NCBI GenBank assembly: GCA_029819875.1 | Contig: JALGVG010000022.1 | Location: forward strand, 1 to 35,093 | Source of the DNA: Candidatus Zipacnadia bacterium | GTDB lineage: Bacteria > Armatimonadota > Zipacnadia > Zipacnadales > Zipacnadaceae | Direction: 5' to 3' | Length of the DNA stretch: 35,093 nt | Shown here: positions 1 to 33,822 of the stretch, piece after piece | Numbering within the stretch: the stretch's first letter is position 1 | Layout of the letters: each line of letters starts with the position of its first letter | Made by a program: the position numbers and the translations under genes | The notes under the pieces: model-generated | What the model saw: the letters and a program-made list of their open reading frames with translations, nothing else | Told to the model about the DNA's origin: nothing | Database searches by the model: none

Positions 1-6
1 CCATTG

Positions 7-414
7 TCAGTCGGTGTTGAACACCATGTAAGGGTTCGCACTCTTGGTGGCGATGACCTGCGGGTGTCCCAGCGATAGAAAATCGGCGGACACCGGAGCC
101 TTTACGCGGTATGCTCCGTTGTCACCTACATCGGTCGGCCACAACGTAAAGGTACTCCAATTGTCCGACTGGCCGAAGTAGAGCCTGGACTGTGTTCCGC
201 AATTGCACACGAGGTGTCCGTCAATGTCGTAATTAGCCACGAGTGCATAAAAATCATACCATCCTGCCCCTATTCCGCTGTTCACGCTCCATGTTTCTTC
301 ACCGTCGATTTGTACAATCCCTTCGACAGTTGTGTCCTCCGGGTTCAGGTCCCCAATGGTGGCGTATGCCTGAGGAGGGGCGGCCCACGCTGCCATGGAG
401 GTTGACAACAGCAC
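7..414 (-). CDS. hypothetical secreted protein (small, Cys-containing, beta-rich)
   Basis: ORF track gives 135 aa. In-frame codons just upstream of the GTG at 414 read RTRTYSKFIAGIVVAVLVLLSTSMAAWA/AP, a complete signal peptide. AGGAGG lies at 469-474 on the minus strand, but there is no ATG/GTG/TTG between it and 414. The true start is therefore probably between 415 and 465. The gene lies directly downstream of cassette copy 1. Confidence 0.6.
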   Translation of the reverse strand: MLLSTSMAAWAAPPQAYATIGDLNPEDTTVEGIVQIDGEETWSVNSGIGAGWYDFYALVANYDIDGHLVCNCGTQSRLYFGQSDNWSTFTLWPTDVGDNGAYRVKAPVSADFLSLGHPQVIATKSANPYMVFNTD

Positions 415-493
415 GAGGACCGCGACAACAATGCCCGCGATGAACTTGCTGTACGTTCTTGTTCGATACCTCCTCTTACTTACAAGGCGCGAC

Positions 494-550
494 TTTAAAT
501 TTTACTACCCCCCCCGCTGTCAAGAGTGGTTTGAGCAGGTTTGAGGGGCA
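494..550 (-). promoter_or_regulatory. promoter/operator cassette copy 1 (2x CTCAAACC direct repeat, -35 TTGACA, G8 tract, A/T-rich -10 region)
   Basis: Minus strand 550->491 reads TGCCCCTCAAACCTGCTCAAACCACTCTTGACAGCGGGGGGGGTAGTAAAATTTAAAGTC. TTGACA is at 523-518 and G8 at 515-508. TAAAAT is at 504-499, and TTTAAA follows at 499-494. The 35-nt core is identical to copy 2. Confidence 0.55.
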
Positions 551-621
551 TTAGGGCAGGCGGCCGGCGCCGCGCAAGCGCGAGGCAGCCAGGCAAGCGG
601 CCGGCGCAGGCCCGGGGCGTA

Positions 622-1563
622 TCAGCGGGCGTAACGGGCGGGGCGGAGTGTAATCAGGAAGACCTCGCACGGGTACTCCGGAGGCGCGAGGGGCACAAGG
701 CCCACTGCCACCGTTTGGTTGGCCGGGGCGGTGAACTGCACGGGATGGTGAATGACCTGGACGGCGTGCTGACCGCCCGGACCTGGCGGGATGTAAAGTT
801 GCGGGATGGAAGCGATGACAGTCACCATGCCCCCTGTTTCATCAAGCGGCGTGATAGAGAAGGGGACCTCGTAGGACTTGCTGGAGCCCTCGTACCCTTC
901 CCACAGCAGGACAGTCCCGACGGCCGGCGTGCCCGGGGTGACAACTTGGGAACCAGAGAGGGCAAGGGGGCCTTGCAGGAACTTGGCCAGTACTTCAGGT
1001 CGGGGCCATTGGTTGACCGCCACCACGCGCAGGCCGGGACTGGCGGAGGTCGTCGGAAGGACGGCATCTTCAAAGCCCTCGGGCCGCAGTACCATCTTGG
1101 GTATATCCACGCGCCGGCCATTGTCCAACTCCACCTCAAAAGTAGGCGACGGGGGCGCCAGCAGGAGCCCGGGCGTCTTGGTACGCACGACCCGGCACTC
1201 AACACGGATGCGGTTCGCCGGGCTTTCAGCAAGACGGCGGGCTTCTGCTTCCACGGCCGTCACGAGCTGGCGAACGAGATCAATGGTCTCTTCTTCGCCC
1301 GCAACCTCCATCACCGAGTGGGCGCGACCGTGTGCGCATGCCTCGGCGTCTGTGGCAAGCGGCCAGCGCACGGCAAGCCAAGGATGCTGCGAACCAGACA
1401 GCAAGGGGGTCTGGGTAAGCCAGCGGCCGAAGGCAGCACCGCCGATATGCTCAAACTCGAACCGCACGTACTGACGCTCCTCTGGCGGAGGCGTCTTCGC
1501 CGGACACGAGGCTGCCACGGCCAAGACAAGGAGGGCTAACGCTGAACAGCAGCGCATTACCAT
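622..1563 (-). CDS. hypothetical secreted protein, paralog of 2795..3712
   Basis: 313 aa with N-terminal signal peptide MVMRCCSALALLVLAVAASC. AAGGAG lies 9 nt upstream of the ATG at 1563. Blocks shared with 2795..3712: FEVELDNGRRVDIP/FEVELDDGNIVTVP, MVLRPEGFEDA/MVRPRGFADA, VQFTAPANQTVAVG/IQYTAPANQVVAVG, VFLITLRP/VFLIAVQP. Confidence 0.8.
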   Translation of the reverse strand: MVMRCCSALALLVLAVAASCPAKTPPPEERQYVRFEFEHIGGAAFGRWLTQTPLLSGSQHPWLAVRWPLATDAEACAHGRAHSVMEVAGEEETIDLVRQLVTAVEAEARRLAESPANRIRVECRVVRTKTPGLLLAPPSPTFEVELDNGRRVDIPKMVLRPEGFEDAVLPTTSASPGLRVVAVNQWPRPEVLAKFLQGPLALSGSQVVTPGTPAVGTVLLWEGYEGSSKSYEVPFSITPLDETGGMVTVIASIPQLYIPPGPGGQHAVQVIHHPVQFTAPANQTVAVGLVPLAPPEYPCEVFLITLRPARYAR

Positions 1564-1605
1564 GGGTACCAGCTCCTTGTTTCGCGGACACGGACCTTTT
1601 AGAAC

Positions 1606-1659
1606 ACTATATCACCCCCCCCTCGCTGTCAAGAGTGGTTTGAGCAGGTTTGAGGGGCA
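1606..1659 (-). promoter_or_regulatory. promoter/operator cassette copy 2 (2x CTCAAACC, -35 TTGACA, G8, extended -10 TGATATAGT)
   Basis: Minus strand 1660->1601 reads TTGCCCCTCAAACCTGCTCAAACCACTCTTGACAGCGAGGGGGGGGTGATATAGTGTTCT. TTGACA is at 1632-1627 and G8 at 1622-1615. TG-A-TATAGT is at 1614-1606. This is about 40 nt upstream of the ATG at 1563. Confidence 0.6.
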
Positions 1660-2706
1660 AAAAGAGACGGCAAGGCCGGCAGACGGATGCGGGTTGGGGC
1701 TGCCCCACCAGGCGGGGTCGGCAGGGTGGTGGATGTCGGGACGACCGGCGCTGCGGGTAAGGTTAACCTGGCTGGTGCCGTCGGCGTTCATTACAAGGAT
1801 GTCGTTTACCGGCGGTTCGGCATCGGGGTCGCGGCGGCAGAAGGCGATTTGGCTACCATCCGGCGACCAGGCAGGGGACTCATCGAGGGCCGCATGGCGT
1901 GTGAGGTTGACCGGCTCGCCGGTACCGTCGGCATTTATGACGCAGATCTCAAAGTCGCGGTCTTGGGGAAGGCCTTGGAAGGCAATCTTGCTGCCATCCG
2001 GGGACCAGGCCGGAGCAACATCAGGTACCTTATTGTAAGTCAAGCGGCGCCAGTGGGTACCGTCAGCATTCATCACGTAGATTTCGCTGGCGTTTTCGCC
2101 CCGGGGTATGGAGAGGAAGGCGAGGTGTTCGCCGTCAGGCGACCAGACCCCCTCCATGCACTTGCGACGGCTAGGGGTCAGTGGTTTTTGGTTGCTGCCA
2201 TCGGCATTCATCACATAGAGCTGGGAACGGCGGTCGCGGCGGCGGGTGAAAACGATCTTGGTGCCATCGGGAGACCATGCCGGATGGGTATCATCCGCAG
2301 CGCTACGGGTCAAGTTTACCGGGTTCGTGCCGTCGGCGTTCATCACGTAGATTTCAAAATTGCCGTCGCGGTTGGTCTGGAAGGCAATCTTGCTGCCGTC
2401 CGGGGACCAAGTGGGGTGTGTGTCGTCGGCAGGGTTGTGGGTGAGGCGAGTAACGCGCCAGTCGGGGGCAGCCATGACGCAGATTTCCATGTTCGGTGTT
2501 CCATTCTCCGAGTACTGGTTGGCAAAGGCGATCCTGTCGCCGGGGCGCGAGGGGCCATAATCGGAGGGGAGCTTGAGGTCAAGGAAGGGCTTAGCAGGCG
2601 GGCGCGGTATCGGCAGGGGCTGCTGGCGGGGTCGGCTGCAGCCGAACAACAGGCCGACGGCGAGGGTGATCATTATTATGCCACTGGGCCTGAGGGGGCG
2701 AAACAT
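1612..2706 (-). CDS. PD40/WD40-like beta-propeller repeat lipoprotein (TolB-like)
   Basis: 364 aa. The lipobox-like N-terminus is MITLAVGLLFGC. At least six repeats of the PD40 signature are present (HPTWSPDGSKIAF, HPAWSPDGTKIVF, GVWSPDGEHLAF, APAWSPDGSKIAF, SPAWSPDGSQIAF), each followed by Y/C-VMNADG. The last ~17 codons and the stop are encoded by cassette copy 2. Confidence 0.9.
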   Translation of the reverse strand: MFRPLRPSGIIMITLAVGLLFGCSRPRQQPLPIPRPPAKPFLDLKLPSDYGPSRPGDRIAFANQYSENGTPNMEICVMAAPDWRVTRLTHNPADDTHPTWSPDGSKIAFQTNRDGNFEIYVMNADGTNPVNLTRSAADDTHPAWSPDGTKIVFTRRRDRRSQLYVMNADGSNQKPLTPSRRKCMEGVWSPDGEHLAFLSIPRGENASEIYVMNADGTHWRRLTYNKVPDVAPAWSPDGSKIAFQGLPQDRDFEICVINADGTGEPVNLTRHAALDESPAWSPDGSQIAFCRRDPDAEPPVNDILVMNADGTSQVNLTRSAGRPDIHHPADPAWWGSPNPHPSAGLAVSFCPSNLLKPLLTARGG

Positions 2707-2794
2707 TGATCATCATCTCCAATCAGCAAGCAAGCACAAGCCGAGGGCTGCGACTGCGCCGACCGGTGCTAGGCACTTGCGTGCTGTGCAAGGG

Positions 2795-3712
2795 TCAGTG
2801 GGCCGACGGTAGCGGCTGAACGGCGATGAGGAAGACGTAAGTCGGTTCGCTGGTGAGGCGATGGCGCATCATGCCGACGGCAACCACCTGGTTGGCAGGG
2901 GCCGTGTACTGTATGGGCTGGTAGGCGACATCCACGGAAAGCCCGGTGCCGGGCTGCATGGTGGTGTGCAGGTAAGGCAAGCGGGCCAGCACGGTCACCT
3001 GGTTATGGTCCCCCACCCAGGCGAGGATGTAAAAGGGCAACTGATATTGTTGTGTGTCGCGGCGTACCGTCACGGTTCCCGAGGTGGCGCTGCCGGAGAC
3101 AACGACGTCGGAACCATTAAAGACCAGCGCGTTGTTTACGGCCTCGTAGAGTGCCTCGCGCGGCGGCTGGATATTGATTGCCGGCAGAGGGTTAAGGAAA
3201 GAGGCGGCGGCATCGGCAAAGCCACGCGGGCGCACCATTGCGGACGGCACCGTCACGATGTTGCCGTCATCCAATTCGACCTCGAAGTCGGATTGCCGGG
3301 CGGCCAGTAACAGTTCGGGACGGGTGGTCGCCACCACCTGGCAGGTCACCTGCAGCCTGACCGGCTCGACGGTGGCAGGCCTGTCCAGGGCCGTGACTAC
3401 TTGCTGGAGGGCAGAGACCATGTACTCGGTGCCGGAAGCCTGCAGGACGCGGCCTTGTTGACCTGTTTTCCAGCGCAAACCGAGGCGGACGTGGCCGCCG
3501 GGCATTACACCCTTGATGGAGCTTATCTGGTCCACCAATGGGTCCACGTTATTAAAGAACAACTGGCCGTCAATGTAGTTGAAGGGGATGTCCACATACT
3601 CCCGCTGGTCGGGAGGGGGCACATCCTCGTCCTGGGCGCGGGCCGGTCCCGGGGCCGAACAGACTGCGGCAAGTAGAAGCATTGCCGACAGGGCAAAGGC
3701 CTTGGCTTTCAT
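2795..3712 (-). CDS. hypothetical secreted protein, paralog of 622..1563
   Basis: 305 aa with signal peptide MKAKAFALSAMLLLAAVCSAPGPARA. The SD-like AGGGGGGA lies 8 nt upstream of the ATG at 3712. Paralogy blocks are listed under 622..1563. It sits 88 nt upstream of the TolB-like gene on the same strand. Confidence 0.85.
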   Translation of the reverse strand: MKAKAFALSAMLLLAAVCSAPGPARAQDEDVPPPDQREYVDIPFNYIDGQLFFNNVDPLVDQISSIKGVMPGGHVRLGLRWKTGQQGRVLQASGTEYMVSALQQVVTALDRPATVEPVRLQVTCQVVATTRPELLLAARQSDFEVELDDGNIVTVPSAMVRPRGFADAAASFLNPLPAINIQPPREALYEAVNNALVFNGSDVVVSGSATSGTVTVRRDTQQYQLPFYILAWVGDHNQVTVLARLPYLHTTMQPGTGLSVDVAYQPIQYTAPANQVVAVGMMRHRLTSEPTYVFLIAVQPLPSAH

Positions 3713-3889
3713 TGCGTATTCCCCCCTGGTTCATAGTGACTGGATTTTGTGCCGGCGAGACGGCGCATGTGCTGGCAAGATCAAGCATATGCAAATCTCG
3801 GCGGAACGTTCGCCCCTGGTGCTGTTTTCCCCTATTCCAGGGTACAACCCGAGCCGGCGGGGATGTTTCGCCGGTGTAGTTGTCTATCC

Positions 3890-3944
3890 ATAATATCACC
3901 CCCCCCGCCGCCGTCAAGAGTGGTTTGAGCAGGTTTGTGGGACA
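3890..3944 (-). promoter_or_regulatory. promoter/operator cassette copy 3 (CACAAACC + CTCAAACC, -35 TTGACG, G8, extended -10 TGATATTAT)
   Basis: Minus strand 3950->3881 reads GTTCAATGTCCCACAAACCTGCTCAAACCACTCTTGACGGCGGCGGGGGGGGTGATATTATGGATAGACA. TTGACG is at 3917-3912 and G8 at 3906-3899. TG-A-TATTAT is at 3898-3890. This is about 170 nt upstream of the ATG at 3712. Confidence 0.6.
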
Positions 3945-4011
3945 TTGAACACGGCAAAAAGCAGCGCCCGCAGTGCACCTGCGGGCGCCGGAGATGAACC
4001 GGACAGCAACG

Positions 4012-4419
4012 CTAGCAAAGGCCGCGAAGCCGGGCCTTGGCACCAGGGGGAAGCGGCTTGTCAATGCCAATCGTGTCGCTGTTTTCGGCGATGAGCAAGA
4101 CCGCATCTTCACTCATCAAGGTGCCGTGCCAGACGTTGCGGCGGACGTTATAGACCGTGCGAGGCTGCATCGGTATTTCGTGGATGTCGCCGATTTCATC
4201 GTCGCCCTCGGCCACCAGCAGGACGGCACGGCCCTGCAGCAGGACGAACACCTCGTCGCTGTTTGGGTGCTTCTGGAGGGTGGAAAGGCCCTCGAGCGTG
4301 GCCGAGGGAGTGAAGTTCTTGATGGCGGTCATCCAGGTTTCGTTGGGGCTGTCAACCACGATTTTGTATCCTTCGCCGTCCCAGTGTCCGATATCAACAA
4401 GTTCAGCAACCGAGGACAT
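4012..4419 (-). CDS. cupin domain protein
   Basis: The ORF track entry is 4012..4446. I prefer the ATG at 4419 (MSSVAELV...) because AGGAGG sits 7 nt upstream. The small beta-barrel-type sequence has HPNSDEVFVLLQG...WHG, typical of cupins. Confidence 0.75.
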   Translation of the reverse strand: MSSVAELVDIGHWDGEGYKIVVDSPNETWMTAIKNFTPSATLEGLSTLQKHPNSDEVFVLLQGRAVLLVAEGDDEIGDIHEIPMQPRTVYNVRRNVWHGTLMSEDAVLLIAENSDTIGIDKPLPPGAKARLRGLC

Positions 4420-4488
4420 GGCTGGACCTCCTGAAGAAAGAGACAAGCCCGGCCCCCGGGACCGGGCTTATTGGGCGAGGCGCGATGA

Positions 4489-5724
4489 TTACTTCTTCCT
4501 GACGTACTCGCCGAGCTTCTTGTCCACGAACAGCTTGCGCAGGCGCGGGTAAGAGGGCAGGTCGGGTGAAAGTGCGACCTCGCGGCCACGCATCAACGGC
4601 TCGGCGTACTCGATGAACTCCTCGGTGACGCCGTCCTTGCGCTCGTTGATCCAGTCCAGGGGTACGGTCTTGACCTGGTCGGCTACGCTCATCAGCGAGG
4701 TGGCGTCTATTTCGAACTCGAAGGGGTCATTTTGCTTGCGGACGATGGTGACCATGATGTCGGTTTCGCCATCCACGGCGCGATTGACGGCGGCCTCGCC
4801 CACGGCGTAGGCAATCTGCAGGTCAGGCTCGGAGAGGCAGTAGGCGAAGCAGCGCTGCATGTTGCCGAGCCGGTCCCAGCGGCAGCGGGCGCCGATGGTA
4901 TCCTCCACAAGGTCAGCCAGGGCCTGGGCAACGCCGCCGAGCCGGGCATGGCCGAACTCGTCGAGCTTGTCGGTGGTGGCCACGACATCCGAATCAGCGA
5001 ACGCAAAGCCCTCGGAGACGGCGACGACCAGGTAGCCGTACTCGGAGTAGGCGGCCTTGCAGCTTTCCAGGAATTCATCGGGATTTATCTTGACCTCGGG
5101 CAACAGCACCAGGTGAGGGGCCATCCATTCCTCCTTGCGGGGGACCGCGGTAGCACCGGTGACCCAGCCGGCATTGCGCCCCATCACCTCGACAACCTCG
5201 GCGTTGCCGAAGGCCTCGGCATCCTTGGCGACGAACTGGGTGGCGGCGGCGGCAAAGCGAGCGGCACTGCCAAAGCCGGGGCTGGTATCCGTAACCACCA
5301 GGTCGTTGTCAATGGTCTTGGGGATGCCGATGATGTTTATCTCCCAGTCGGATTGCTTGGCCAGCTCGGAGATGAGGTGGCAGGCCAGCTGGGAGTCGTT
5401 GCCGCCGGTGTAGAAGAAATAGCGGATATTGTGGGCCTTGAAAACCTCCAGGACGCGCTCGAGGTCGCGCTCGGTAGGCTTAAGGCGGGACGTTCCGAGG
5501 GCGGCGGAGGGCGTATACCTGAGGGCATTGATGACCTCGTCGTCTTCACGGAACAGGTCTATGAGGTTTTCGTGCAGAATGCCGTCAAGCCCGTGGATGG
5601 CGCCGTAGAAATGCTCGATTTCGTCGCGCGCCTCGGCGGCCTGGATGGCGCCAACGAGGCTGGCGTTGATGACCATGGTGGGGCCGCCAGACTGGCCAAT
5701 TAAGGCATTACCTTTAAGTGCCAT
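4489..5724 (-). CDS. pfp: pyrophosphate-dependent 6-phosphofructokinase (PPi-PFK type)
   Basis: 411 aa PFK-family sequence (GQSGGPTMVINA, YTGGNDS, GIPKTIDNDL). The Asp in GGNDS aligns with E. coli PfkA Gly104. The Lys in PKTIDND aligns with Gly124. Both are the established PPi-specificity signatures. AGGAGG lies upstream of the ATG. Confidence 0.88.
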   Translation of the reverse strand: MALKGNALIGQSGGPTMVINASLVGAIQAAEARDEIEHFYGAIHGLDGILHENLIDLFREDDEVINALRYTPSAALGTSRLKPTERDLERVLEVFKAHNIRYFFYTGGNDSQLACHLISELAKQSDWEINIIGIPKTIDNDLVVTDTSPGFGSAARFAAAATQFVAKDAEAFGNAEVVEVMGRNAGWVTGATAVPRKEEWMAPHLVLLPEVKINPDEFLESCKAAYSEYGYLVVAVSEGFAFADSDVVATTDKLDEFGHARLGGVAQALADLVEDTIGARCRWDRLGNMQRCFAYCLSEPDLQIAYAVGEAAVNRAVDGETDIMVTIVRKQNDPFEFEIDATSLMSVADQVKTVPLDWINERKDGVTEEFIEYAEPLMRGREVALSPDLPSYPRLRKLFVDKKLGEYVRKK

Positions 5725-5946
5725 TTACATCTGACCTCCTGTTCATTTCCTAATCGGCGAATGATATGGCAGCCGGCATGTCGTGCAGTATGCTTCTTTA
5801 TACTATAACATCCCGGCTGGCTTGGAGCAATCCCCACAGTGCCGCGCTGCAGCAACGTGCCCTTTGGCATCCCACGGCTGCACCGAGGCGGTCGACTTGT
5901 CAGCGTTGGGGGCAGAGACTGTCGCTCACAACGGCAAGCGCACAAG

Positions 5947-6927
5947 CTACAGCAAGTCGCTTATGGACAGTACGGCGCCGCCGGCGGCAGCGGACTCGTT
6001 GGCGGCCACGGAGACGGCCAGGCTGCGGTAGCCGTCGGCGTAGTCGGAATAGATGAGCGAGCGGTCGCCGGTGCGGATGGCGTGGACGAAGGCCTTGTCC
6101 TCGCCCGTGTATCCGTCGGCGGTGCAATCCATCTCGCCCTCATCGTCAGGTGATTTCCATTCCAGGTGAGTGCCGACGATCTCCACCATGAAGTCCACGC
6201 AGATGACGGCCAGGCCGCTCTTCCAATGCCCGCGAAGCATGGAGGTATTGGAGATGTTGCCGGTGGCACCGTTCTCGAAGACCAGATTGACCGTCATGGT
6301 GTCGGCCAGGTCGTAGCCCTCGATGATTTCGTGCATGTAGAGGCGGTTATCGAAGGCCTGGACGGTGACAACCTCGCCGGCCAGGTAGCGGGCGAGATCG
6401 ACGATATGGGTGGTCTGCTCGACGATCTGGCCACCGGACTGGGCCTGGACCCTCCACCATGGAGAGCCGGGCGTGCCGGACCAGTAGTAGCCTGACACCA
6501 AGCCGATGGCCTTGCCCTCCAGCAACTCCTTGGCCTTCAGCACATGGTCGTCCCAGCGGTACTTGTACGCGACGACGGTGGTGATATCGTTGGACTGGAC
6601 GGCCTGCAGGATGGGGCGGGCCATGTCCAGGTCAATGGCGACGGGCTTTTCAATCAGCATGGGCAGCTTGCGCTCGCAGCAGGCGATCTCGATATCGCCG
6701 TGGGCGAAGGGCGGCACACAGATGACCACGCCGTCGAGCTCTTCGTTGTTCAGCATGTCCTGGTGATTGTCATAGGCACGCCCGCCGAACTTGTCTGCGG
6801 CCTGCTGGGCGCGTTCCAAGACAACGTCGCAAAAGGCGACGTTTTGGACGTCCTCCATTGCTCCGAGGCGATCCATGTGGCCTTGGGCGATGCCGCCTGT
6901 TCCGATGTAGCCGAGCTTAATAGACAT
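5947..6927 (-). CDS. Gfo/Idh/MocA family NAD(P)-dependent oxidoreductase
   Basis: 326 aa. The N-terminal Rossmann motif is KLGYIGTGGIAQGH, followed by EKP (LIEKPVA), which is typical of the family. GGGAGG lies upstream of the ATG. Confidence 0.9.
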   Translation of the reverse strand: MSIKLGYIGTGGIAQGHMDRLGAMEDVQNVAFCDVVLERAQQAADKFGGRAYDNHQDMLNNEELDGVVICVPPFAHGDIEIACCERKLPMLIEKPVAIDLDMARPILQAVQSNDITTVVAYKYRWDDHVLKAKELLEGKAIGLVSGYYWSGTPGSPWWRVQAQSGGQIVEQTTHIVDLARYLAGEVVTVQAFDNRLYMHEIIEGYDLADTMTVNLVFENGATGNISNTSMLRGHWKSGLAVICVDFMVEIVGTHLEWKSPDDEGEMDCTADGYTGEDKAFVHAIRTGDRSLIYSDYADGYRSLAVSVAANESAAAGGAVLSISDLL

Positions 6928-10090: not shown

Positions 10091-10120
10091 TTGACACCTT
10101 CGCAAATGCGAAGATATAAT
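10091..10120 (+). promoter_or_regulatory. consensus sigma70 promoter of the mla-like operon, with a palindrome in the spacer
   Basis: TTGACA (10091-10096), an 18-nt spacer, and TATAAT (10115-10120). The spacer contains the perfect inverted repeat CTTCGCA-AA-TGCGAAG (10098-10113). Confidence 0.6.
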
Positions 10121-19918: not shown

Positions 19919-19962
19919 GGAGAGTAAGCCTGCGCGGCGGCAGTGAGGCAAAAGGGCGCAGC

Positions 19963-19991
19963 TTGCAGGCCAAGGTGAGAGGCGCTATAAT
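19963..19991 (+). promoter_or_regulatory. sigma70-type promoter upstream of the GT-C-like gene
   Basis: TTGCAG (19963-19968), a 17-nt spacer, and TATAAT (19986-19991). This would give a ~165-nt leader containing two C7 tracts. Confidence 0.4.
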
Positions 19992-20163
19992 AACAAACAA
20001 CAAGTCAGTGAACACAAGGAATTCATAGCTCGGCACAATTTTCTCCCCCCCTTGTGTCGGGCATCAAAAACTCCCCCCCAACATAACTTGAGCATCCGGG
20101 AAAAAGGCCCAGGAGGGCAAAGCGCTGGGCGGCATCAAGCTGCCGCAGTACGCCTGCACATTG

Positions 20164-28704: not shown

Positions 28705-30024
28705 TCAGGACACCTCGTCCGGTCGCTCGGCAGCGTGGCGGATAACCTTGGCCACGGCTACGACAGTCGAACCCTCGTCGGGGGTAGCAATTCGCACGCC
28801 TTGGGCCAAACGGCCTGTGCGCCGGATGTTGGCGACCGGCAGGCGGATGAGGACACCTTCGGAGGTGATGCACATAACCTCGTCATCTTCGTCCACCACC
28901 ACGGCGCCGATGACGTTGCCGTTTCTCTGGGTGATGGTAAGCGTCCTTACCCCCTGGATATTGCGGCCCTTGCGGTGGTATTCGGCCAGGGGGGTACGTT
29001 TGCCCAGGCCTTTTTCAGACACGACCAGCAGGTCACGCTTGTCGTTCTTGTCGACGGCGACTGCAGCGACCAGCGCGTCATCCGGGGCGAGCTTGATGCC
29101 GGCCATCCCGGCGGCATTGCGACCCATGGGCCGGACCAGGGCTTCATCAAAGCGGACGGCCTTGCCCAGCTTGGTGGCGAGAATGATGTCCTTGGTGCCA
29201 TCGGTCCACAGCACCCACCTCAATTCATTGCCCTCGCGCAGGTTGATGGCGATAAGCCCCTTGGATTTGAAGGAAGTGTCGTAGGCCTTGAGAGCGGTCT
29301 TCTTGATCATTCCTTGGCGAGTGACCATGACCAAGTACCCGCCGATGTCGTAGCTTTCGACCGGAATCATTGCGGTCACGCTCTCGCCGGGTTCCAGCGG
29401 CACGACGTTGACGATGGGGGTGCCGCGGGCCGTACGGCTGGCCACCGGCACCTCGTAGGCCTTCACGCGGTACACTTTACCGGTGTTGGTGAAGGCCAGA
29501 ATGAGGTGGTGGGTAGTAGCGACGAAGAGGTCCTGGACGGTATCCTCTTCCTTCTTGGAGAGGGCCACCACACCTCGGCCCCCCCGGCGCTGCACCCTGT
29601 AGGTATCCAGGGGCAGGCGCTTGATGTAGCCGTCGCGTGTGATGGTTATGGTCATGTCTTCCTGGGCGATGAGGTCTTCCATGCTGATGTCATCAGCCTC
29701 GTCGGGGATGATGCGCGTTCTGCGTTCATCGCCCAGCTTGCGCTTTATGTTGCGCAGTTCTTTCTTGATGACCTCGGACTTGACGCGTTCGGACCCGAGT
29801 ATCTCCTTGTACTCGCGGATGTTGCGCTCAAGCTGCTCGTATTCTTGCTGCAACTCGGAACGCGACAGGCGGGTGAGGCGCCCCAGTTGCATGTTGAGGA
29901 TTTCCTCGGCCTGGGCCTGGGTGAAGCCCAATTCGTTCATCAAGCCGTCCCGGGCGGCGGAGCGGTTCTCGCTGCCGCGGATGAGGGCGATGACCTCGTC
30001 GATCATGTCGAGGGCCTTCAGCAC
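28705..30024 (-). CDS. gyrA: DNA gyrase subunit A, C-terminal fragment (frame-shifted relative to the N-terminal part)
   Basis: (V)[18 protein letters not shown]...[13 protein letters not shown] is followed by beta-pinwheel repeats. It continues the GyrA sequence exactly where 29828..31192 loses homology. Confidence 0.92.
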   Translation of the reverse strand: MLKALDMIDEVIALIRGSENRSAARDGLMNELGFTQAQAEEILNMQLGRLTRLSRSELQQEYEQLERNIREYKEILGSERVKSEVIKKELRNIKRKLGDERRTRIIPDEADDISMEDLIAQEDMTITITRDGYIKRLPLDTYRVQRRGGRGVVALSKKEEDTVQDLFVATTHHLILAFTNTGKVYRVKAYEVPVASRTARGTPIVNVVPLEPGESVTAMIPVESYDIGGYLVMVTRQGMIKKTALKAYDTSFKSKGLIAINLREGNELRWVLWTDGTKDIILATKLGKAVRFDEALVRPMGRNAAGMAGIKLAPDDALVAAVAVDKNDKRDLLVVSEKGLGKRTPLAEYHRKGRNIQGVRTLTITQRNGNVIGAVVVDEDDEVMCITSEGVLIRLPVANIRRTGRLAQGVRIATPDEGSTVVAVAKVIRHAAERPDEVS

Positions 30025-31192
30025 CCTCGACGATATGGAGGCGTGCCTCGGCCTGGTTGAGCAGCCAGCGAGTGCGCCTGGTTACGACCTCGCGGCGATG
30101 CTTGAGGAATTCGGCCAGCAGATCCTTGATGCTGCATTGCTGGGGAATGAGCTTGCCGTCGGGCGTCGGTATCAGGGCAAGCAGGTTTGCGCCGAAGGTG
30201 GTACGCAGGGTGGTGTGCTTGTACAACTGGTTGAGCACAACCTGGGGGTTGACGTCACGCCGCAGCTCGATGACCACGCGCATCCCCTTGCGGTCTGATT
30301 CGTCGCGCAGGTCACTGATGCCCTCGACCTTGCCCTGAGCTACGAGCTTGGCGATTTGCTGGAGGAGGGCGGATTTGCCCACCTGATAGGGTAACTCGGT
30401 TATGACAATGGCGTTGCGTTCGCGTTCGATGGGTTCAATGATGGCGCGGGCCTGCATGGTGACGGAGCCGCGACCGGTTTTCATGTATTCTTTGATACCC
30501 TTGATGCCGATGACCAGGCCGGCGGTGGGGAAATCGGGCCCCTGAATGTGCTGCATGAGCTGTTCGATGGAGATATCGGGGTTGTCCAACAGGGCGATGG
30601 CGGCATCCACGACCTCGCCGAGGTTGTGGGGCGGGATGTTGGTGGCATATCCGACAGCGATACCCGAAGAGCCGTTGCACAGCAGGTTGGGGAACGCGGC
30701 GGGCAATACCTTCGGCTCCTGGTTGCGCTCGTTGTAGGTGGGCTGGAAGTCGACGGTGTCCTTGTCGAGGTCTTCGAGCATGGCCATGGCAACCGGCGAC
30801 AACCGCGCCTCGGTATAGCGGGCGGCGCCGGGAGGATCGCCGTCAACCGAACCGAAGTTGCCTTGGGGGTCGATCAACGGGTAGCGGGCGTTGAAGTCCT
30901 GCCCCATGCGCACCAGCGTATCGTAGATGGGCAAATCCCCGTGGGGATGGTAGGTCTTCATCGTCTCACCGACGATGGCCGCGCACTTGGAATGGGGGCG
31001 GTCGGGGGTGAGACCCTCATCGTTCATCGCCACGAGGATACGGCGCTGGGAGGGTTTCAGGCCGTCGCGCACATCGGGCAGGGCGCGCGCGACGATGGTG
31101 CTCATGGCGAACTGCATGTACGAGGTGGTCATCTCCTGCGAAACGGAGATGGGTTCGATGTTGTCTGCGTTCTCTACGATAGTTTCAGCCAT
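29828..31192 (-). CDS. gyrA: DNA gyrase subunit A, N-terminal fragment (authentic GyrA sequence only from 31192 down to about 30023)
   Basis: [17 protein letters not shown] and AARYTEARL (catalytic Tyr) are present. After ...[10 protein letters not shown] the translation becomes an Arg/Pro/Gly-rich out-of-frame tail. Confidence 0.92.
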
Positions 31193-33792: not shown

Positions 33793-33822
33793 TTGACAAA
33801 CACAGATGCAAAGGGATATACT
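33793..33822 (+). promoter_or_regulatory. sigma70-type promoter upstream of rpoB
   Basis: TTGACA (33793-33798), an 18-nt spacer, and TATACT (33817-33822). This implies a ~210-nt leader before the rpoB ATG. Confidence 0.5.

Follow-up and report, generated by a model that had tools for sequence, protein, structure and literature searches.

The closest described counterparts of the element analysed here, a ~55-bp module repeated in a 35,093-nt stretch of DNA from a Candidatus Zipacnadia bacterium (Armatimonadota; contig JALGVG010000022.1; hereafter the window), are found among promoters and promoter-proximal sites of other bacteria. Putative mobile promoters and promoter reuse have been reported by Matus-Garcia, Nijveen & van Passel (2012), as far as their work is summarised in PMC3575422. 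In Bordetella, the promoters of fim2, fim3, fimX and fimN contain a conserved "fim box", a region for the activator BvgA and a C-stretch, and a single-base change in the C-stretch of fimX (C7 vs C8) alters the spacing and, 3.8-fold, the amount of transcript (PMC1891110). A poly-G tract is also present in the promoters of outer-membrane protein genes of Treponema pallidum (tp0126/tpr) and Neisseria meningitidis (porA), where the spacing relative to the 17-nt optimum decides activity, and where 8 or fewer G are permissive for tprE/G/J (PMC7864442). Among the sites of winged-helix regulators located next to promoters, that of PhoP of Mycobacterium tuberculosis consists of 7-bp direct repeats with a 4-bp spacer (PMC4832192), and that of KdpE of 6-bp direct half-sites (PMC3264566).

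Inspection of the minus strand of the window between positions 494 and 3944 revealed three same-strand copies of the module, at 499-550, 1606-1659 and 3890-3944. The explanation that we favour, with a probability of roughly 60%, is that the repeat constitutes a sigma-70-type promoter module, copied to three places within one ~4-kb cell-envelope gene cluster. The parts of the copies, read on the minus strand (R1 and R2, the two direct repeats), are as follows.

Copy 3, 3890..3944, minus strand: TGTCC (3944-3940), R1 CACAAACC (3939-3932), TG, R2 CTCAAACC (3929-3922), ACTC, -35 TTGACG (3917-3912), linker GCGGC (3911-3907), G8 (3906-3899), TGA (3898-3896), -10 TATTAT (3895-3890); spacer 16 nt
Copy 2, 1606..1659, minus strand: TGCCC (1659-1655), R1 CTCAAACC (1654-1647), TG, R2 (1644-1637), ACTC, -35 TTGACA (1632-1627), linker GCGA (1626-1623), G8 (1622-1615), TGA (1614-1612), -10 TATAGT (1611-1606); spacer 15 nt
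Copy 1, 499..550, minus strand: TGCCC (550-546), R1 (545-538), TG, R2 (535-528), ACTC, -35 TTGACA (523-518), linker GC (517-516), G8 (515-508), TAG (507-505), -10 TAAAAT (504-499); spacer 13 nt

A first-pass annotation of this stretch had described three near-identical segments with unrelated flanks, exactly eight G in each copy and -35/-10 spacers of 13, 15 and 16 nt, and all of this held on closer analysis. Every sequence detail was found at these positions, alignment by parts returned the same spacer values, and in a MAFFT alignment including 60-nt flanks the sequence on either side was unrelated among the copies. A repeat finder recognized one 55-nt family, whose members match the reference copy at 80% and 85% (ungapped identity). 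Within the window, the 27-nt core CWCAAACCTGCTCAAACCACTCTTGAC has three occurrences and no more (minus strand, 519-545, 1628-1654 and 3913-3939, with 0, 0 and 1 mismatch), and was matched in none of 100 dinucleotide shuffles, even at 3 mismatches. All five CTCAAACC octamers of the window (0.89 expected) lie inside the copies. The three G8/C8 runs of the window are exactly the tracts of the module, and they are also its three longest homopolymers, although their number does not exceed the expectation from base composition (6.5 in shuffles).

The conservation of the copies is markedly uneven. The upstream 35 nt (block A) read TG(C/T)CC, C(T/A)CAAACC, TG, CTCAAACC, ACTC, TTGAC(A/G), GC and include 3 variable columns in all, every change being in copy 3. 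Within this block, CTCAAACC-TG-CTCAAACC has a 10-bp period and ends 4 nt ahead of the -35 hexamer. Block A is followed by (i) a linker of 0, 2 (GA) or 3 (GGC) nt, (ii) exactly G8, placed at -23 to -16 in all three copies and within the promoter spacer, (iii) a T and (iv) 8 positions, 5 of which vary, while the invariant ones spell T-A-n-n-n-T. The hexamers TAAAAT, TATAGT and TATTAT stand at a fixed distance from G8, with TGn in copies 2 and 3; copy 1 has no TG motif ahead of its -10, and a ribosome-binding site (RBS), GGAGG, lies downstream of it at 473-469. The likeness among the copies ends at the final base of the -10, and the transcribed leaders are unrelated. Variable columns account for 3/44 in block A, G8 and T vs 5/8 in the -10 region (Fisher p = 0.001). 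Such a distribution would be expected of a promoter acting at the DNA level, whose transcribed leaders may differ, and it appears unlike that of a freshly duplicated, evenly conserved segment or of an RNA element. The leaders following copies 2 and 3 (1570-1585 and 3857-3872, minus strand) both hold C(C/G)GCGAAACA, ~20-29 nt past the -10, which could be an ancestral remnant or the result of chance.

The two hexamers are of the sigma-70 type in each copy: the -35 is TTGACA in copies 1 and 2 and TTGACG in copy 3, and the -10 is of the TAnnnT type throughout. When compared with a spacing of 17 +/- 1 nt, the spacer has 16 nt in copy 3, 15 in copy 2 (16 in strain contig L088) and 13 in copy 1. All copies are co-oriented with, and face, a downstream gene. 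Canonical promoters precede three other genes of the contig, which indicates that the hexamers of the module are of the kind used by this organism:

10091-10120: TTGACA-18-TATAAT, before mlaE
33793-33822: TTGACA-18-TATACT, before rpoB
33628-33600: TTGACT-17-TATCAT, before gyrB

The spacers of the module (13, 15 and 16 nt) are shorter than those of these other promoters (17-18 nt). A generic promoter scan rated copy 3, with its 16-nt spacer, as a good stand-alone promoter (10/12 plus TG), and since it combines a consensus -35 with an extended -10, its core promoter should work unaided.

The module is embedded in the following arrangement of genes.

3962..3990, minus strand: intrinsic terminator (12-bp GC stem and T tract) belonging to the cupin gene upstream, 17 nt before copy 3
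2795..3712, minus strand: gene of a 305-aa (amino acid) secreted, secretin-like protein, the first gene after copy 3
1612..2706, minus strand: gene of a 364-aa PD40 (TolB-like beta-propeller) lipoprotein, the second gene of the copy-3 unit
622..1563, minus strand: gene of a 313-aa secreted, secretin-like paralog, after copy 2
7..471, minus strand: gene of a small secreted protein of ~150 aa, after copy 1

The order on the minus strand is thus the cupin gene, terminator, copy 3, the 305-aa protein gene, the PD40 lipoprotein gene, copy 2, the 313-aa protein gene, copy 1 and the gene of the small exported protein. The predicted fold of the terminator (-36.3 kcal/mol, z = -3.9) was equalled in none of 200 shuffles, and because so strong an intrinsic terminator precedes it, copy 3 should mark the start of a new transcription unit. 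Transcription is predicted to start (i) near 3883 for copy 3, giving a ~171-nt leader to the ATG at 3712, (ii) near 1599 for copy 2, with a ~36-nt leader to the ATG at 1563, and (iii) near 492 for copy 1.

According to the mechanism that we propose, copy 3 (P3) would drive the genes of the 305-aa secretin-like protein and the PD40 lipoprotein, copy 2 (P2) the gene of the 313-aa secretin-like paralog, and copy 1 (P1) that of the small, unrelated secreted protein. The upstream 35-nt block would dock RNA polymerase, with region 4 of sigma on TTGACA. Its phased repeats (about -39 to -56) would serve as the contact site of a single dedicated DNA-binding protein or, alternatively, of the C-terminal domains of the alpha subunit. 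The downstream half of each promoter would comprise G8, three bases and the TAnnnT -10, joined to the upstream half by the linker of 0, 2 or 3 nt. Since the linkers set the -35/-10 distance at 13, 15 and 16 nt, basal strength is predicted to fall from P3 through P2 to P1, although the three promoters would receive a common input. Copy 1 (13 nt, no TG) is a doubtful promoter.

The position of the copies relative to the genes was only partly as first annotated. The copies do face genes of signal-peptide proteins, as had been claimed, but copy 3 is not just upstream of its gene, lying about 171-178 nt from the ATG of the 305-aa protein gene, and in the gene following copy 1 no canonical start codon precedes the signal peptide. 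Copy 2 is not located in an annotated intergenic gap: the PD40 open reading frame (ORF) continues for 29 codons beyond the conserved C-terminal DPAW(W)G motif and reads through copy 2 (1612-1700, minus strand), its stop codon being the TGA of the extended -10. In the gene of the small secreted protein (414-473, minus strand), the apparent signal peptide RTRTYSKFIAGIVVAVLVLLSTSMAAWA is encoded upstream of the first canonical start, a GTG at 414, and the RBS GGAGG is followed by ACG, ATC and ATT only, with no in-frame ATG, GTG or TTG. The same arrangement is present in L088, in which the gene caller chose a much later ATG. It is possible that the copy-1 gene uses a non-canonical start codon.

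The history of the promoters seems to be separate from that of the genes. The 305-aa and 313-aa proteins are paralogs of 34% identity, whereas the promoter blocks ahead of their genes are identical at 32 of 35 positions, and the 154-aa protein encoded after copy 1 shows no relationship to the 313-aa protein. The first-pass annotation had likewise noted that one downstream gene is unrelated and that the conservation is not a mere by-product of gene duplication, and the figures given above bear out both statements. The separate history would imply duplication, capture or gene conversion of the promoter. At a distant locus (L095, positions 1000-1066), a PD40 gene ends at DPAWGR* and is followed by a 299-aa secretin-like gene after a 42-nt junction, which holds an RBS only and no cassette. 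Another locus (L096) carries two tandem secretin-like paralogs 153 nt apart, again with no cassette. The longer PD40/secretin-like junction of the window, compared with that of L095, is in line with a history in which copy 2 was inserted between two operon genes that had been closely spaced.

Several observations weigh against a promoter function of all three copies, or against the history outlined above. With 13 and 15 nt, two of the spacers depart from the customary 16-18 nt; P1 in particular may be inactive or may employ the block differently. The near-identity of block A in the three copies could reflect recent gene conversion rather than function. Moreover, L095 is only 35-40% identical and may be a paralogous locus, and the copy-2 event may have been either an insertion here or a loss elsewhere. 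Finally, the regulon scan of the bacterium's own genome covers one 35-kb contig, which leaves room for a genome-wide regulon.

The family of the 305-aa and 313-aa proteins is a very small one. A full HMMER scan of 1.84 billion representatives returned 7 members only of the 305-/313-aa family. These proteins (including P0123-P0126), at ~300 aa, would be unusually small for secretin-like proteins. The AlphaFold2 model of the 305-aa protein reached a pLDDT of 68.5, a moderate value, with a better score for the C-terminal beta domain, and a Foldseek search with this model gave the secretins InvG, GspD, PilQ and BfpB as best matches (E values down to 2e-6, with low TM values of 0.2-0.3). In addition, the family member P0126 matches Pfam Secretin_N at 2e-6. 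The label "secretin-like" is therefore used here tentatively. Together with the PD40 lipoprotein, these proteins look like a cell-envelope module. The contig itself is an ordinary chromosomal stretch, with rplI, dnaB, purD/E/F/M, gyrB, gyrA and the start of rpoB.

The cluster was also found in four contigs of near-identical strains from sibling JGI samples (L088, L093, L094 and L098), three of which were aligned and share 98.6-99.6% DNA identity with the window. Block A is unchanged in all four, but this conservation is uninformative, because the strains differ by 0.4-1.4% and zero single-nucleotide polymorphisms would be expected in block A anyway. The copy 3 sequence, with G8, is also present in L093, L094 and L098, and copy 1, with G8, is identical in L088. 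Exact-sequence look-ups of the 313-aa and PD40 proteins of the window, made to obtain further tracts, gave no match. Indels were seen at other positions of the cluster: in L088, 9 nt are missing from the leader between copy 1 and the RBS (window 478-486), and in L093 the cupin gene carries an in-frame insertion of 21 nt (window 4093). Several strain contigs break within the cluster; these breaks and the indels suggest microdiversity at this site.

No copy was detected outside the species. PFK homologs of 60-67% identity are named as belonging to Armatimonadota or Armatimonadetes. In the sister species (L089/L090; PFK 82% identical, with part of the synteny kept), no cassette was found beside PFK at up to 9 mismatches, nor was one found at this threshold at the more distant Armatimonadota PFK loci L091 and L092. 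At the secretin-like family loci L095 and L096 there was none at up to 10 mismatches; a further locus, L097, is truncated where its gene begins and lacks the upstream region. The rest of the contig (31 kb) contains no further copy of the module. The relaxed pattern CAAACCNNCNCAAACCNNNNTTGAC was scanned against 185,579 GTDB species genomes, JGI metagenome contigs and viral contigs, which yielded 26, 61 and 0 matches, respectively. Those in the GTDB genomes were all single chance matches or unrelated repeats, those in the JGI contigs likewise chance matches or unrelated repeats, and none in either set had the G tract/-10 half. The silence of the JGI collection says little about close relatives, as it evidently lacks the samples holding the strain contigs. 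A blastn search with copy 2 against plasmids and phages gave no match. A pattern scan of this kind had been proposed as a means of defining a regulon; in the contig and in the GTDB, JGI and viral collections, the motif is confined to this species and to the 3.5-kb cluster.

Some of the chance matches have features of their own. Three of the 55 distinct CAAACCNNCNCAAACCNNNNTTGAC matches are real-looking promoters of other phyla, which only reflects the presence of TTGAC in the pattern. In these (L002 1104-1160, L012 6684-6740, L022 141-197 and L069; two Ktedonobacter species with identical sequence, a Spirochaetaceae metagenome-assembled genome and one metagenome contig), phased CAAACC repeats lie directly upstream of TTGACA-17-TAnnnT; at 3/55, such layouts are too few for their meaning to be judged. 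The pattern also caught an unrelated multi-copy repeat (…CATATAATCAAACCAGCACAAACCCCAATTGAC…GGCTCAAACCAGAATTC), with several copies per contig, in JGI metagenomes Ga0307509 to Ga0307517 (contigs L028, L032, L034-L038, L042, L044, L046-L048, L055, L061, L062, L065, L072, L077 and L080-L084). This repeat probably represents a transposable element from a different organism.

The part of the module most open to other explanations is the pair of direct repeats. The segment had been annotated as a promoter/operator cassette. The promoter part of this proposal is well supported, at the level of sequence, by the hexamers, the orientation, the terminator and the edge of conservation, whereas its operator part, a putative site for a winged-helix activator, is no more than compatible with the data. 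Stated in full, the latter proposal would have the two CTCAAACC repeats bind a head-to-tail dimer of an OmpR/PhoB-family regulator, required at all three promoters and governing a genome-wide envelope regulon, and this we regard as unlikely. The repeats, 10 bp apart centre to centre, lie on one helix face and adjoin the -35, as in the OmpR/PhoB-type layout (direct repeats with a 10-11-bp period), and they resemble the sites of M. tuberculosis PhoP (PMC4832192) and KdpE (PMC3264566); their targets would be envelope or secreted proteins, and spacers below the optimum (13 and 15 nt) would be consistent with promoters in need of assistance. On the other hand, the cores are not weak, having a consensus -35 in all copies (TTGACG in copy 3) and an extended -10 in two, and copy 3 scores as a promoter by itself, so that strict activator dependence is not implied; the short spacers had first been read as arguing for dependence on an activator. 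The linker bases TG, ACTC and GC vary no more than the repeats, a pattern that points to common descent (promoter duplication) at least as strongly as to selection on an operator. As had been noted earlier, no regulator gene is visible: the Pfam scan of the window ORFs revealed no DNA-binding or response-regulator (receiver) domain in any scanned ORF of the 35 kb. More degenerate sites (up to 3 mismatches over both half-sites, spacing 9-11) were absent from the remaining 31 kb and from six related Armatimonadota loci. A dedicated DNA-binding protein on the phased repeats is nevertheless plausible. An equally good candidate, by analogy, is an UP-element-like role, because the AAA triplets of the repeats fall near -42 and -52 (about -41 to -43 and -51 to -53, numbered from the -10 of copy 3), where the alpha C-terminal domain of Escherichia coli contacts the proximal and distal subsites of UP elements (rrnB P1).

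The G tract gives rise to a different explanation, namely that of a contingency (phase-variable) promoter, in which G8 would slip during replication, change the distance between the two halves and so switch or tune the expression of surface proteins. We consider this improbable, and the same holds for its combination with the operator, in which a regulator-binding repeat block would be coupled through a slippage-prone G8 to the -10 before each unit of the cluster, whose "mini-secretin" proteins would form a family not described before, the lengths of tract and linker setting which units are on. A homopolymer of at least ~7 nt between -35 and -10, the feature looked for in a phase-variable promoter, is present in all copies, the three longest homopolymers of the window all being placed in a promoter spacer. 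The downstream genes encode exported or outer-membrane-type proteins, and the Bordetella, Treponema and Neisseria systems have the same layout (PMC1891110, PMC7864442). The tract lengths were as follows; they are those of the assembly consensus, which hides variation within the population.

Copy 3: four observations, all G8
Copy 2: three observations, two of G8 (one of them in L093) and one of G9 (L088)
Copy 1: two observations, both G8

The G9 of L088, which extends the spacer of copy 2 from 15 to 16 nt, is one of three indel events in a ~9-kb strain comparison, and this single allele hints at slippage. However, 8 of the 9 tract observations (five assemblies) are G8, so the tract looks stable rather than hypervariable, and a lone G8/G9 difference between metagenome assemblies could be an artefact of assembly or consensus. 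Furthermore, G8 is among the shortest tracts for which switching can be measured, its frequency does not exceed what base composition predicts, and the differences in spacer among the copies lie in the linker and not in the tract.

Least probable of all, and by a wide distance from the promoter module that we prefer, is that the repeat is no promoter but a short mobile or recombination repeat (of the miniature inverted-repeat transposable element (MITE) or REP type, or a site-specific recombination site) or an RNA hairpin, in which the 5' CCCC would pair with G8. It is true that the repeated segment is sharp-edged and confined to a small region, and that its CCCC...G8 ends can pair, the fold of copy 1 reaching -18.5 kcal/mol (z = -2.2). 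Copies 2 and 3, however, fold no better than shuffles (z = -1.3 and +0.2), and in copy 3 the pairing is weakened by two uncompensated substitutions at the 5' edge. The copies lack terminal inverted repeats and target duplications, all have one orientation and all lie upstream of genes; no copies were found in the public collections, plasmids or phages searched, and the 3' edge coincides with the TAnnnT hexamer. A search with Rfam covariance models (window 1-6000, both strands) gave no match at E <= 1, and on this result, the fold z-scores and the uncompensated change in copy 3, a structured RNA was rejected. A generic intergenic repeat or MITE had been named beforehand as a finding that would speak against a promoter, and the data do not resemble one: a MITE/REP-type element was rejected for the lack of inverted repeats or a palindromic hairpin, and for the presence of just three copies in the 35-kb contig, in one orientation and always before a gene. 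Other candidates were rejected on inspection: (i) a promoter of an extracytoplasmic function (ECF) sigma factor (-35 AAC... / -10 CGT), as there is no CGT/GTC-type -10 at a fixed distance and the distance from repeat to G tract varies, (ii) a sigma-54 promoter, as there is no GG-N10-GC element, (iii) an integron attC/core site, as RYYYAAC/GTTRRRY is not matched and there is no hairpin, and (iv) an integration host factor (IHF) site, WATCAANNNNTTR, which is not matched.

Two further features of the window were recorded. The gyrA gene (28705-31192, minus strand) is split into two overlapping ORFs, N-terminal (31192-29828) and C-terminal (30024-28705); the frame changes near 30024-30030, after ...ARLHIVEG, within GTCGAGGGTGCTGAAGGCC and not at a homopolymer, and the split reflects either a faulty assembly or a genuine frameshift. 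Ahead of the gene that starts at 20161, its leader (19962-20135, plus strand) contains a promoter-like site, TTGCAG-17-TATAAT, followed by two CTCCCCCCC repeats (20043-20051 and 20071-20079) complementary to the GGAGGG RBS just before 20161, which may represent an anti-Shine-Dalgarno arrangement.

If confirmed as a promoter, the module would be a clean natural example of promoter reuse, by which an old paralog pair and an unrelated gene would be wired into one expression unit, in a phylum, Armatimonadota, for which almost nothing is known about transcription signals. Its natural spacer variants (13, 15 and 16 nt, and the G8/G9 allele) form a ready-made series for the study of promoter geometry. 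The practical value is modest: for this lineage the module would offer a candidate part, either a strong or a regulated promoter. The module also points to a small envelope gene cluster, with secretin-like proteins and a PD40 lipoprotein, which is probably co-regulated. Nothing found here challenges current models, and there is a small chance of the more interesting mechanism, a contingency promoter in an environmental phylum.

As in OmpR/PhoB operators, the two direct repeats of the module are about one helical turn apart and next to the -35; unlike in these operators, their period is 10 nt (8 + 2) instead of the usual 11, they fit no described box, and the -35 is consensus instead of weak or replaced. 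We know of no OmpR/PhoB-family consensus that they match. With UP elements the module has in common the AAA triplets, one helical turn apart and directly upstream of the -35, but UP elements are long A+T-rich tracts, whereas here there are A runs of 3 nt only, in a G+C-rich context, and the positions of the alpha contacts are those of E. coli, which may not hold for the RNA polymerase of Armatimonadota.

The likeness to the Bordetella fim promoters lies in the succession of a conserved or activator block, a G/C homopolymer and the -10, common to several genes of exported surface proteins. The Bordetella tracts, however, are longer (7-22) and demonstrably polymorphic, in contrast to the G8 in 8 of 9 observations here, and their activator is known (BvgA, of the NarL/FixJ type), while the module has a consensus -35. 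The promoters of Treponema and Neisseria similarly have a poly-G of ~8 nt between, or next to, the -35 and -10, but those tracts vary within isolates, as seen by fragment analysis, compared with one inter-strain difference in the present case, and the host here is an environmental member of Armatimonadota and not a host-restricted pathogen.

The module comes closest to putative mobile promoters. These are defined by an identity of at least 80% over at least 50 nt, within one genome, ahead of unrelated or distantly related coding sequences; the copies described here are 80-85% identical over 55 nt, their downstream coding sequences are unrelated or distantly related, and the module has no link to a known insertion sequence or RNA family. 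It differs in that a single gene cluster holds all three copies, over 3.5 kb, with two of the downstream genes being old paralogs, and in that no transfer between genomes was seen. Given this clustering and the old paralogy of the two genes, the copies may equally well have arisen by local duplication or gene conversion as by "mobility". Local promoter reuse is the most likely reading, with promoters duplicated for local co-regulation, a known and fairly ordinary phenomenon, and the module would thus be a fresh instance of the duplicated or putatively mobile promoters already described.

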